From positions 1 through 47,107 of IMG/VR virus record IMGVR_UViG_3300033069_001366: a stretch of DNA of 47,107 nt; one strand, written 5' to 3'. A model generated the notes under the pieces. That model did not search any database. It saw only the letters and a program-made list of their open reading frames with translations, and had not been told where the DNA came from. This DNA is from a virus. Its lineage: Duplodnaviria; Heunggongvirae; Uroviricota; Caudoviricetes. Of this stretch, positions 9,402-19,305 are shown piece by piece (the stretch's first letter is position 1; every line of letters begins with the position of its first letter). The translations under genes were made by a program, and so were the position numbers.

Positions 9402-9580
9402 GTGATGAAATTTTAGAACTAACTACAGTTACTGACTATGTTAATGAAATCGAAAGAATGTTTGATAATAAACCAGATAAAAGAACTAAAGAATACAAGA
9501 ATTGGAAAGAGAATATAAATTCTCTAATAGAAAAATTAAACAAAATCTCAAAAGTAAAACTATACTCAAAAGTCATATGA
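9398..9580 (+). CDS. Hypothetical 60-aa protein
   Basis: ATGA overlaps at both ends. Confidence 0.6.
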   Translation: MSDEILELTTVTDYVNEIERMFDNKPDKRTKEYKNWKENINSLIEKLNKISKVKLYSKVI

Positions 9581-10260
9581 ATTACAAAATAATAACAGAT
9601 GAAAAACTTTTAAAAGACTTTATAGAATGGCTACCTGAACTAAAACAGGATGAGAAATACTATTTTTGTCTTTTTGCAAGAAATAAATATTGTAAAGAAC
9701 TTACACATATTAAGTCTGATAAAGCACAACTAAAAAGATTTGTGTCAGATAAGGATAGACTTTTCTGGAAAATAAAACAACTTGAATGTGAGATAGATTC
9801 TTATAGACAAAAAGAAATACCTGTTCCTCAGGAAGCTCTTGCTTTGTACATGACTGTAAATCCAAGAAGTATGCTTAAGGCTACTGTAAATACAATGGTA
9901 AAACTTGCTCAAAGCATAAGAGATCAGAATATAAATATGAATGCTCACCAAGAAGCGTTAAGTGAGATACAAAAAGCAAAATCAAGAACTTGTTTTGTAG
10001 ATTTTGACGTAGATAATAAAGATTCATTAAAAGAAATATCAGAACAACTTGATAATCAATTTAATGAGTATCATATCTTAGAAAGTAGAGGAGGTTACCA
10101 TGTTATGGTAAATCCTGAAAAGGTAAAACAGGAGTTTAAAAATTCTTGGTACAATACTTTTAAAAGGTATTCTGATCAGACTGGAGATATAATGATACCT
10201 GTTGTTGGTACTTATCAAGGAGGATTTACACCTAAATTTATAAAAAATGTTAGATTATAA
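9577..10260 (+). CDS. AEP (archaeo-eukaryotic primase) superfamily-like protein; probable start 9577
   Basis: FVDFDVD (motif I DxD), ESRGGYH (motif II SxxGxH), GDIMIP (motif III). Confidence 0.55.
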   Translation: MNYKIITDEKLLKDFIEWLPELKQDEKYYFCLFARNKYCKELTHIKSDKAQLKRFVSDKDRLFWKIKQLECEIDSYRQKEIPVPQEALALYMTVNPRSMLKATVNTMVKLAQSIRDQNINMNAHQEALSEIQKAKSRTCFVDFDVDNKDSLKEISEQLDNQFNEYHILESRGGYHVMVNPEKVKQEFKNSWYNTFKRYSDQTGDIMIPVVGTYQGGFTPKFIKNVRL

Positions 10261-15929: not shown

Positions 15930-15964
15930 GAATCCCCTATAGACTAATATAGGGGATTCTTTTT
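15930..15964 (+). terminator. Intrinsic terminator
   Basis: GAATCCCCTATA-GACTAA-TATAGGGGATTC followed by TTTTT. Confidence 0.88.
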
Positions 15965-15991
15965 CTATTATAAATATATAAAAATAATAAT

Positions 15992-17089
15992 ATGAACGAT
16001 ACACTTCCTAAATTATATAAGTATAGTACTACAGGAAAAGCTCAACAATGGGAAATTGTTATATCTGGAAATACCTTTTACACGATTGAAGGTCAAGTTG
16101 GTGGTAAATTAACTACTTCATTACCGACAGTTTGTAAAGGTAAGAATATAGGTAAAGCAAATGAAACTACTGATGAACAACAGGCTTTATTGGAAGCAAA
16201 AGCCAAGTGGCAAAAGAAAGTAGATAAAGGTTATAGTGAAGTTATATCTACAGAAAAGAAGTTCTTTGAGCCAATGCTGGCAAATGATGCCCACAAAAGT
16301 AAAGATCTTTTTACAAAAAGAACATTTGTGCAGCCAAAACTAGATGGGTTAAGAGCTATTAATCAAAATAATACTCTTATGTCCAGAAATGGTAAACCTT
16401 ATGTATCAACTCCCCATCTGTATCAGGATAAATGGATTCTTGATGGTGAACTTTATACTCATGAGTATAAGGATGATTTTAATAAAATAGTTAGTCTTTG
16501 TAAAAAAACAAAACCTGAACCTGAAGATTTAAAAGAATCTGCAGAAAAGGTACAATTTTGGTGTTACGATATTCCTTCTGTTGATGGACCTTTTAGTAAA
16601 AGATATGAACATCTCAAAATTTTAAGCTTACAGTTTGGTGATAGTTTTGTACTAGTTCCTACCTATGAAGTTAAATCTTGGGATGATATTAAAAAGTATC
16701 ATGAACAATTCTTAGGAGAAGGTTACGAAGGTACTATTATTCGTATTGACTTAGGTCCTTATGAAAATAAAAGGAGTAAACAACTTCTTAAGTATAAAGA
16801 TTTTGTAGATGAAGAATTTAAAATTGTAGGTTTTGAAGAAGGTACTGGCAATAGAGTTGGAACTATTGGCTTCTTTATTTTACAACATGATAAAAACCCT
16901 GAACAAACTTTCAAATCAAATATCAAAGGAGATTTTGATTTTCTGAAACAAGTTTGGCAAGATAGACAGTCTTATATAGGAGCTACAGCTACTGTAAAAT
17001 ATTTTAATAGAACACCAAAAACAGAAGATGGAGGTGATGTGCCAAGATTTCCGTTTGTAATTAAGTTAGCAAGAGAAACCTTTGAATAA
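15992..17089 (+). CDS. lig: ATP-dependent DNA ligase with N-terminal WGR-like domain
   Basis: PMLA, QPKLDG (K at 16337), DGEL, EGTIIR, KYKDF, C-terminal PRFP. N-terminus W..I.G....EGQVGGK...KK.DKGY. Confidence 0.9.
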   Translation: MNDTLPKLYKYSTTGKAQQWEIVISGNTFYTIEGQVGGKLTTSLPTVCKGKNIGKANETTDEQQALLEAKAKWQKKVDKGYSEVISTEKKFFEPMLANDAHKSKDLFTKRTFVQPKLDGLRAINQNNTLMSRNGKPYVSTPHLYQDKWILDGELYTHEYKDDFNKIVSLCKKTKPEPEDLKESAEKVQFWCYDIPSVDGPFSKRYEHLKILSLQFGDSFVLVPTYEVKSWDDIKKYHEQFLGEGYEGTIIRIDLGPYENKRSKQLLKYKDFVDEEFKIVGFEEGTGNRVGTIGFFILQHDKNPEQTFKSNIKGDFDFLKQVWQDRQSYIGATATVKYFNRTPKTEDGGDVPRFPFVIKLARETFE

Positions 17090-17119
17090 ATTTGAATATG
17101 TTATTAAAAAGAGAAGAAT

Positions 17120-17329
17120 ATGAATAATAAAAGATTAGTCCAAATTTTAGGAGATATGTGGGAAGAATTATGGTACTTCCCACAAGATGTTACAGATGAA
17201 CAAATTAAAGAATCTTTTCAAAGATATAGAGATTCAGATTATGAAACATTTGAAGAGTACTTAGATGAAGAAAATCCACAAATGGATGGAGAAAGAGTAT
17301 TTGTTGATGAAATTCTAATAACTTATTAA
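17120..17329 (+). CDS. Small acidic hypothetical protein
   Basis: 69 aa, D/E-rich; lies between ligase and PARP. Confidence 0.65.
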   Translation: MNNKRLVQILGDMWEELWYFPQDVTDEQIKESFQRYRDSDYETFEEYLDEENPQMDGERVFVDEILITY

Positions 17330-17330
17330 T

Positions 17331-18497
17331 ATGAATAAATATGCCAAACTTATAATGGTAACGACTGAAAACAATAATAAATTTTACGAGATGACCTACG
17401 AAGGTGGGTCATCTTTTAATGTAAAATATGGTAGAGTAGAATCTACCATACAAACTGCCTCATACTCCTTATCTCAATGGAATAGTAAATATAATGAAAA
17501 GATAAGAAAGGGTTATAAAGATGTAACTCATACTGTTGCTGTAGAAGTAAAACAGGTAGAAGATGTAAAATATACTAACTCTGGTTCTCCAGAGGAAGAG
17601 TTTTTATTTTTAATGAAGAAATATACAGATGGTCTTGTTTCTAAGACATATACTGTTAAGGCTCAAAGTGTTACACAAAAACAAGTAAATAATGCACAAG
17701 GGTACTTAGATCAGTTAGTAAAACTTCCAAAAACCAAGACTACTGAAATAAATAATCTCTTACTGCAGCTTTATATGGAAATCCCAAGAAGGATGGGAAA
17801 TGTAAGAGATTATCTTCTTCCTAATATCAATTTAGAAAAAGTTCTTCAACAAGAACAGGATAATCTTGATGCTATAGCTTCTCAGGTATCTATGATTTCT
17901 ACAGACAAAAAGAAGAAGACTAAAAAGAATGAATCTGATCTATTATCCACTCTTGGTATTAAGATGAAGAAAATAAATGGTCATCCTGATATACAATATC
18001 TTGTGGATCAATTAAGTAAAAATAAAATAAAAGCTATATTTGAGATTCAAAAGCATGAACATGATAAACTTTTTGAAGATTGGATGAAAAAGCAAAAGAA
18101 TACTCAAAAAAGGCATTTATTACATGGTACAAAATGTACAAGTGTTATCCCAATTATTGAACAAGGTTTGAAAATAAGACCTTCAGGAAACTATCAGTTC
18201 TCTGGTAAAGTTTATGGTGAAGGGAACTATTTTAGTGAAACTTGTTCAAAATCATTGAATTATACAGGATATGATCCAGATCAAGTACTACTTGTTTACG
18301 AAGTTCATACAGGTAATCCTTTCGTTTATGATGGATGGTATAGAGGAAATTCTTTTACTTTAAACTATAAAAATTTGCAAGAAAGAGGATTTGATAGTAC
18401 CTTTGTAAAAGCTGGCGGTGGTTTATTAAATACAGAAATCATTGCTTACAAAGAAGAACAAGCAAGAATCAAATATATAATTCACTTAAAAAGATAA
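17331..18497 (+). CDS. PARP-family ADP-ribosyltransferase (WGR, helical regulatory and catalytic domains)
   Basis: WGR: NNNKFY..YGRV..KIRKGY. Helical domain: VTQKQVNNAQGYL..LYMEIPRRMG. Catalytic H-Y-E: LLHGT (18123), GKVYGEGNYF..SKSLNY (18228), LLNTEIIAY..Q..IKY (18435). Confidence 0.92.
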   Translation: MNKYAKLIMVTTENNNKFYEMTYEGGSSFNVKYGRVESTIQTASYSLSQWNSKYNEKIRKGYKDVTHTVAVEVKQVEDVKYTNSGSPEEEFLFLMKKYTDGLVSKTYTVKAQSVTQKQVNNAQGYLDQLVKLPKTKTTEINNLLLQLYMEIPRRMGNVRDYLLPNINLEKVLQQEQDNLDAIASQVSMISTDKKKKTKKNESDLLSTLGIKMKKINGHPDIQYLVDQLSKNKIKAIFEIQKHEHDKLFEDWMKKQKNTQKRHLLHGTKCTSVIPIIEQGLKIRPSGNYQFSGKVYGEGNYFSETCSKSLNYTGYDPDQVLLVYEVHTGNPFVYDGWYRGNSFTLNYKNLQERGFDSTFVKAGGGLLNTEIIAYKEEQARIKYIIHLKR

Positions 18498-18500
18498 CAA

Positions 18501-19256
18501 ATGTTAGAACCAGGAACAAAAGTAAGAATTACAGACAGTACAGGTCATGTCTTTAAAAAAGGTGCTATATGTACACTACTAGGTTTTTATGGAAATGGAT
18601 ATTATAAACTTAGAGGTATATATACCTATAATGGAAGAAGGGCTAAAGTAACACAATCTGTAAACGAAAAATCATTTGAAATAATTAAAAACGAAAAAGA
18701 CATGGTAACCAAATTAGATGTGCTCTATGCAGCAAACCAATTATGTATTGCTAACAATACAGTAACTACTTTAGAAATTAAGAATTATCTGAGAAAGAAA
18801 TTCCCTAATAAAAGATGTACTCAAGACTTTGTTTCAAAAACAATGATTGACTATGCTAATGAGGGAAGATTTACATTTAATGATAATGGAACATATAGAG
18901 TTTACTCAAGCAAATTATCAGGTACAGTTCAGGCAGGTAGTGCAATAACAGTATCTAATTCTCAAACATCAAAAACCAATAAAAACATGAACACAAAAAG
19001 AATCTCAAGAACAACAGCTATTAACCTTATGAGGAATAGTAAAGGTCAGTTTTTCACAGTTGAATTCCAAAAACAAGATGGTACATTGCGTACACTCAAT
19101 GGTCAGTATATGAAAGACCAAAAGTTAAACAGCTCTTATGTTTTAGTTAAAGAGTCTGGAAAACTTAAAACAGGAAGTAATCCAATCAGAAATGTAAATC
19201 CTGATACACTTAAAGTTCTTAAAATAGGTGGTGAAACTTATAGGATTAGAAAATAA
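18501..19256 (+). CDS. Three-module protein: SH3-like, winged-helix-like and WYL_2/Sm-like C-terminus
   Basis: C-terminal FTVEFQKQDGTLRTLNG resembles the phage WYL_2 family; internal Met at 18702 and 18987 mark module boundaries. Confidence 0.5.
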   Translation: MLEPGTKVRITDSTGHVFKKGAICTLLGFYGNGYYKLRGIYTYNGRRAKVTQSVNEKSFEIIKNEKDMVTKLDVLYAANQLCIANNTVTTLEIKNYLRKKFPNKRCTQDFVSKTMIDYANEGRFTFNDNGTYRVYSSKLSGTVQAGSAITVSNSQTSKTNKNMNTKRISRTTAINLMRNSKGQFFTVEFQKQDGTLRTLNGQYMKDQKLNSSYVLVKESGKLKTGSNPIRNVNPDTLKVLKIGGETYRIRK

Positions 19257-19274
19257 TTTTTTTAAAAACTATGA

Positions 19275-19305
19275 AAGAAGGGTAGGTATTCTACCCTTCT
19301 TTTTT
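19275..19305 (+). terminator. Intrinsic terminator
   Basis: AAGAAGGGTAG-GTATT-CTACCCTTCTT followed by TTTT. Confidence 0.85.

Follow-up and report, generated by a model that had tools for sequence, protein, structure and literature searches.

We analysed a four-gene locus in a 47,107-nt stretch (the window; positions 1 to 47,107) of the Caudoviricetes record IMGVR_UViG_3300033069_001366. The locus encodes an ATP-dependent DNA ligase, a small acidic protein, a poly(ADP-ribose) polymerase (PARP), as well as a three-module protein with a winged-helix domain. The conserved unit is the PARP plus the last gene's winged-helix domain; ligase and acidic gene are neighbours. An initial annotation had grouped all four genes into one unit with the last gene as an accessory, and comparison across loci reverses this assignment, the last gene being the conserved partner. 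PARPs of this kind are already catalogued, phage enzymes being among the common viral ADP-ribosyltransferases (ARTs; Iyer et al. 2022, PMC9503650), and the PARP itself is not a first report. Our literature searches, in which coverage of subscription journals was thin, found no description of the PARP–winged-helix pair, and the consulted passages of a study of bacterial PARPs (PMC5966428) make no mention of the partner.

Pairing of the PARP with a winged-helix domain

To compare gene neighbourhoods, we assembled about 190 PARP loci, drawn from collections of viral, metagenome and genome sequences, and clustered the neighbours. There is a single dominant neighbour, a 72-residue domain that corresponds to the central part of the last gene. 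This domain follows the PARP in 30 of 31 non-redundant loci at at least 45% identity, lies next to it in 73 of 94 loci at 30–42% identity, mostly Bacteroidota chromosomes, and does so in one of six still more distant loci. In the reverse direction, viral loci anchored on the partner contain a PARP in 18 of 19 cases, the 19th locus being truncated; the count comes from an alignment of phage-clade winged helices and is hence biased to that clade. The PARP is present in 36 of 301 Cytophagales genomes, the winged helix in 41 and both in 35, with about five expected by chance and with a significance inflated by the relatedness of these genomes. Furthermore, the pairwise identities of PARP and partner correlate (rho 0.58 in phages and 0.68 in bacteria, both inflated by kinship), and the PARP and its partner are the only genes enclosed by a pair of similar hairpin elements in L029 and L030. 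In five Microscilla-type genomes the pair is not adjacent and the partner is located elsewhere in the genome.

Two side observations concern the same gene pair. Four Microscilla-type genomes (G001, G002, G004 and G168) carry a second PARP (~775 aa) along with several additional winged-helix genes (~200 aa), and in L020 and L027 genes for HNH-like endonucleases are inserted between PARP and partner, which are not moved any further apart.

The locus comprises the following features, all on the + strand.

15930–15966 (hairpin 15930–15959), +: terminator-like hairpin and T run after rIIB, z −5.2
15992–17089, +: ATP-dependent DNA ligase of AsfvLIG/PHROG 114 type, 365 aa, KxDG lysine K116
15992–16279, +: N-terminal DNA-binding domain of the ligase, WGR fold (predicted), homologous to the AsfvLIG N-terminal domain
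17120–17329, +: acidic protein, 69 aa, pI 4.05, 19 D+E, of a small mobile phage family
17331–18497, +: PARP, 388 aa, with WGR (~3–67), helical domain (~114–190) and ART (~230–388)
18123, 18210, 18228, 18249 and 18435–18437 (GAA), +: PARP codons H265, V294, Y300, K307 and E369, respectively
18501–19256, +: last gene, 251 aa, with SH3/KOW (1–62), winged helix (68–140) and WYL_2-like Sm barrel (165–249)
18699–18920, +: winged-helix domain (TTLEIK motif), common to bacterial PARP operons, no Pfam family
19273–19305 (hairpin to 19303), +: terminator-like hairpin and T run after the last gene, z −5.5

The four open reading frames and both hairpins lie where the initial annotation had placed them. 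None of 200 shuffled sequences folded as well as either hairpin, and a hairpin at the position of the 19273 element is found again in many relatives.

The PARP matches PF00644 (E 2e-20) and, more weakly, the WGR family (E 7e-4, slightly below the cut-off). Its alignment to PARP1 structures extends through the helical domain, and a profile of 67 homologous sequences matches PARP2 across the WGR, helical and catalytic domains (E 8e-32); the WGR–helical–ART order of DNA-dependent (clade 1) PARPs is present. The H-Y-E triad and donor-site residues are all found (H265, G266, Y300, S308, Y311 and E369). Specifically, H265, Y300 and Y311 are invariant in the 67 homologues and E369 is kept in 64 of them, while the YGR and KKGY motifs of the WGR region are invariant or almost so. 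The domain order and the intact triad (H265-Y300-E369) reported earlier are therefore confirmed. The gene is under purifying selection (pN/pS 0.155/0.507, compared with L018), and 15 of 16 population variants at 17645–17948 fall on third codon positions. By analogy with its characterised relatives, the protein is probably a break-activated relative of PARP1–3 with an intact WGR–helical–ART body.

Homologues number 768 in the protein database and 14 in annotated phage records, among them gp031 of Cellulophaga phage phi4:1 (PHROG 23333, poly(ADP-ribose) polymerase), which is 34% identical over 99% of the length and is sister to the clade of the present PARP in a quick tree. In phi4:1, gp031 is followed by gp030, a winged-helix–WYL gene homologous to the last gene here; the phage differs in having a T4-type ligase downstream rather than a WGR-type ligase upstream, and in having no acidic gene. 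The Bacteroidota homologues are 30–36% identical to the phage PARP and have the partner gene in common. HaPARP and CdPARP (Cytophagales, clade 1.1; PMC5966428) share the WGR–PARP_reg–PARP_cat domains, YGR in place of WGR and the H-Y-E triad, and DNA-activated automodification has been demonstrated for both. Relative to human PARP2, PARP3 and PARP4 (~25% identity), the phage enzyme lacks the N-terminal tail, zinc fingers, BRCT and HPF1, and its winged-helix partner is a separate protein.

The PARP of the iridovirus IIV-6 has been traced to a phage PARP (PMC9503650). We also observed, in a 212,482-bp record with iridovirus-like genes (L011/L039:6001–7257, L011 coordinates), a PARP of 42% identity that a stop divides into 234 and 181 codons and that lacks the partner.

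Domains and possible roles of the partner gene

The predicted model of the last gene product (pLDDT 88) begins with an SH3/KOW barrel, continues with a winged helix and ends in a WYL_2-like barrel, in agreement with the three-module, WYL-like protein described by the initial annotation. The WYL_2 score is 16.9 bits against a cut-off of 26.7, and the fold matches a winged helix plus WYL. A C-terminal WCX domain is not present, the protein stopping after the Sm barrel. The winged helix belongs to a family of ~1,300 clusters that has no Pfam name, and searches returned no consistent Pfam, PDB-sequence or Atlas family for it. It occurs alone or fused to WYL_2 (phages), to WGR (many Bacteroidota, E 3e-6) or to another small domain. 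This swapping of fusion partners among nucleic-acid-binding domains suggests that the winged-helix partner serves in DNA targeting. Complex prediction for the PARP with the winged-helix domain gave a score of 0.05, which is not evidence either way.

A further set of proteins (P0153, P0194, P0203, P0246 and others like them) joins the winged helix to an unnamed ~60-aa domain that contains a TRDxVR-like motif; an L318 gene of this type has no PARP nearby.

The best Foldseek matches of the last gene product, though weak, are CapW, BrxR, DriD and PafBC (E 0.003–0.02), in which a winged helix is likewise followed by a WYL-like Sm barrel. WYL regulators sense single-stranded DNA in damage and defence responses. 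These matches and the WYL_2-like barrel raise the alternative that the last gene is a WYL-type regulator, its winged helix on an operator and its WYL part sensing single-stranded DNA, that induces the PARP after DNA damage and leaves the PARP to act alone. We regard such a regulator as unlikely, as the protein is without WCX, is 7–11% identical to these regulators, has an extra SH3/KOW barrel and is encoded downstream in the PARP's own unit. In addition, the bacterial partners are without the WYL part, 29 bacterial loci have a separate WYL-WCX regulator, and no common operator upstream of the PARPs is obvious.

The bacterial loci also bear on a second alternative, in which the pair acts in conflicts. 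In Spirosoma, Fibrella and Larkinella, the PARP operon lies opposite a WYL-WCX regulator and has pPIWI_RE_Z genes among its members. The PARP would then modify host defence or repair proteins or drain NAD+, as counter-defence or superinfection exclusion in phages and as abortive defence in bacteria, with the winged helix as antitoxin, substrate or brake. Such a role would fit a mobile two-gene cassette that occurs in many contexts, the WYL regulator and pPIWI_RE_Z genes beside bacterial copies, the NAD+-rebuilding and macro-like genes beside some phage copies (L028–L030) and the fact that most viral ARTs act in conflicts (PMC9503650). Set against it, neither PARP nor partner has a PADLOC match, the autoinhibitory helical domain is intact, virion genes are absent from the context of this locus, and no NAD salvage gene was found in the 66%-complete record; on balance, we consider a conflict role unlikely.

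L073, L084, L107, L121 and about 25 more Spirosomataceae loci have the order divergent WYL-WCX regulator, pPIWI_RE_Z gene or genes, PARP and winged helix, often with a second RE_Z gene. This arrangement is a candidate damage-induced or defence operon.

The ligase, the acidic gene and the surrounding locus

The ligase matches PF01068 (E 1e-16) and has the architecture of AsfvLIG, with a mixed alpha/beta N-terminal DNA-binding domain (NTD) followed by adenylation and OB domains. AsfvLIG is also its best PDB sequence match, NTD included (E 5e-32), and its closest solved relative. The N-terminal ~85 aa end in KKVDKGY, and their predicted fold is closest to the AsfvLIG NTD (Z 10.2), followed by WGR folds, namely 2ra8 (Z 9.7, root-mean-square deviation 2.6, 73 aligned) and the WGR domains of PARP1 and PARP3 (Z 7.1–7.6); the next unrelated structure scores 5.4. 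The NTD has no PF05406 match, a profile-profile probability of 0.3 against Pfam WGR and a weak hidden Markov model score of 10 bits. The WGR-like N-terminus proposed for the ligase is accordingly upheld by fold and not by a Pfam sequence match. WGR–ligase fusions are described in bacteria (PMC7470946). The AsfvLIG NTD fold was called novel (PMC6344480), whereas here it aligns with WGR domains, which places a fold called unique in a known family and joins it to hundreds of phage ligases. As AsfvLIG requires its NTD both to bind nicks and to ligate (PMC6344480), the matching domain is most simply read as the ligase's own DNA clamp. At the position of AsfvLIG Asn153, the phage ligase carries the usual aspartate of the KxDG motif (canonical QPKLDG), and error-prone ligation is therefore not implied.

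The presence of WGR-fold domains on both enzymes is one ground for a dedicated PARP–ligase repair kit. Taken furthest, this idea would have the PARP capping 5′-phosphate ends with ADP-ribose and the WGR-ligase sealing them even without ATP. PARP3 can ADP-ribosylate 5′-phosphate ends, and T4 and other ligases joined PARP3-modified gapped DNA in the absence of ATP (PMC5843604), which offers the one chemical route by which the idea could still hold. A ligase is near the PARP in about five arrangements involving two unrelated ligase types (the main group, L142/L144, phi4:1, L040 and L108), somewhat above random placement, which would allow for a loose functional link, though not for a fixed module. 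Most of the PARP-linked cases have one common gene order.

The wider distribution makes a dedicated kit improbable. The ligase NTD is found in 784 phage records against 14 with the PARP (at differing thresholds), and a PARP is present in 4 of 59 ligase-anchored loci with adequate flanks. The same ligase type lies 15–45 kb from the PARP in three near-complete phages, and in the syntenic relative L146 rIIB is directly upstream of the PARP. Both genes belong to a DNA-metabolism region anyway. The dedicated four-gene module of the initial annotation is thus not retained, and the PARP–ligase linkage on which it relied is half kept, the ligase lying within 2.6 kb of the PARP in 11 of 21 phage-clade loci and in 2 of 76 distant loci. 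The protein is probably the phage's general ligase and not a dedicated partner of the PARP.

The acidic protein belongs to a family of 22 proteins, and its gene adjoins the PARP in near relatives alone (L018, L150 and L316), being found elsewhere beside DnaB, NT5C or unknown genes. All four of the more distant homologues examined sit in unrelated places. Its membership in the module is consequently not sustained, the linkage to the PARP not being conserved across phages, and the gene is a passenger. The protein is 98.5% identical to L018:212–421 (pS 0.06), far closer than the flanking PARP at 78% (pS 0.51), which points to a recent exchange of the acidic gene. A role as DNA mimic or ADP-ribose acceptor was considered and rejected, as the protein has no family, no Atlas match above 0.78 and no link to the PARP. 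The ligase and the acidic gene are in the predicted transcript here through gene order alone.

The virus record is 122 kb long, 66% complete and 29% GC, and the locus lies within its DNA-metabolism arm, flanked by rIIA/rIIB on one side and by gp88, a SegE-like nuclease and an exonuclease VIII-like gene on the other. The same DNA turns up in 20 runs belonging to 8 sequencing studies, chiefly of wastewater, sludge, bioreactor and soil. The host is inferred to be one of the Bacteroidota, the relatives being Cellulophaga phages and Cytophagales. A sigma-70 promoter scan gave 57 against 59.5, i.e. chance level, and a Bacteroidota-type TAnnTTTG box at 17087 was rejected as a promoter, the motif occurring about once per kb and upstream of the PARP in 1 of 27 relatives. 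The suggested connection to a uracil-DNA glycosylase (UDG) is not confirmed, a UDG family search of the 122-kb record giving no match; a 252-aa ORF at window positions 9502–10260 (PHROG 14949), conserved in relatives and without a Pfam UDG match, may be the gene that was meant.

The acceptor site and a proposed mechanism

The acceptor site of the phage PARP departs from that of a polymerase. V294 aligns to PARP1 M890, and this position holds V, A or I in 27 of 27 aligned sequences of the phage clade (30 rows, 98% SH-aLRT in the quick tree), phi4:1 gp031 having Val as well, against M in 39 of 40 distant ones. The N987 position is changed to S or T in the phage clade, and the loop that follows the SLNY motif is shortened by ~9 residues. 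In place of the polymer-type set (M890, Y986, N987 and the H826 loop), the window PARP has V294, N367 and T368, with the H826 loop deleted in the alignment. The bacterial homologues retain Met890, Asn987 and a longer acceptor loop, which the phage clade does not. The equivalents of K903 and E988 are kept in the window PARP (K307 and E369) and are lost in L141, L145 and L146, a sub-lineage near it that still has H and Y of the triad, the WGR domain and the partner gene.

In PARP1, M890V causes a >200-fold loss of activity through a displaced acceptor, and PARP3 has Arg at this position (PMC6486540); PARP4 has Asn there and Thr at K903 and is mono-active (PMC10711553). Human PARP3 and PARP4, both mono-active, thus differ from PARP1 at these positions (PMC6486540, PMC10711553), and their altered site parallels that of the phage PARP. 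Given the replaced M890 equivalent and the shortened loop, the phage-clade enzyme is more likely a break-activated mono-ADP-ribosyltransferase than a polymerase, and we infer that chain elongation is no longer under selection in this clade. Synthesis of poly(ADP-ribose), as had been entertained for this protein, is accordingly doubtful. Loss of chain elongation would fit the absence of a PARG match from the record, in which no Macro, NADAR, PARG, ARH, Nudix or NAMPT match was found, the record being incomplete and Pfam Macro overlooking divergent phage macro genes.

A four-step mechanism can be proposed. First, the WGR domain would bind nicked DNA or DNA ends, with the helical domain freeing the NAD+ site, which is quite likely in view of PARP1–3, HaPARP and CdPARP. 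Second, mostly single ADP-ribose units would be transferred, the chain-accepting site being altered; this step is somewhat favoured by the sequence change. Third, the partner winged helix, with the WYL barrel in phages and WGR in many bacteria, would be an additional DNA-binding or targeting module acting in trans and replacing the PARP1 zinc fingers, for which co-occurrence gives about an even chance. Fourth, and more tentatively, the product may, while the phage replicates, mark or cap the ends of broken phage DNA or proteins in the vicinity, which are then protected or passed to the general ligase and recombination enzymes.

That the functional unit is a compact PARP2/3-like enzyme plus a winged-helix partner working in this way is, in our judgement, evenly balanced. 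Several observations weigh against it. The partner was not detected with the Klebsiella, Xanthomonas and clostridial phage PARPs or in L040–L043, and three of four informative distant winged-helix homologues are without an adjacent PARP; with PARP lineages lacking the partner and winged helices lacking a PARP beside them, the pairing is not obligate. The winged-helix–WYL order suits a transcription factor equally well. The M890V effect was measured on human PARP1, may not transfer and could mean a weak enzyme instead of a mono-transferase. Lastly, neither an assay of a phage PARP nor a known acceptor was found in the literature.

A more specific version, which we hold to be doubtful, is a two-component prokaryotic PARP system in which the winged helix is the DNA-targeting subunit in trans and, in phages, the polymerase has turned into a mono-transferase capping broken ends that are shielded from host nucleases and ligatable by the WGR-fold ligase. 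If a partner is indeed required, this would explain the scant biology obtained from recombinant bacterial PARPs. For this small two-protein system, bacterial members (Met890) are predicted to make chains and phage members (Val/Ala) not to, a natural experiment on the difference between poly- and mono-ADP-ribosylation.

Other genes recur around the phage pair. GroES/GroEL-like genes encoded by the phage are directly upstream of it in L019 and L025, and macro-like genes adjoin it upstream in L028, L029, L030, L019 and L140. In L030, whose macro-like gene is overlooked by Pfam Macro, a NAMPT/Namat-like gene (PF04095, E 6e-25) lies beside the pair.

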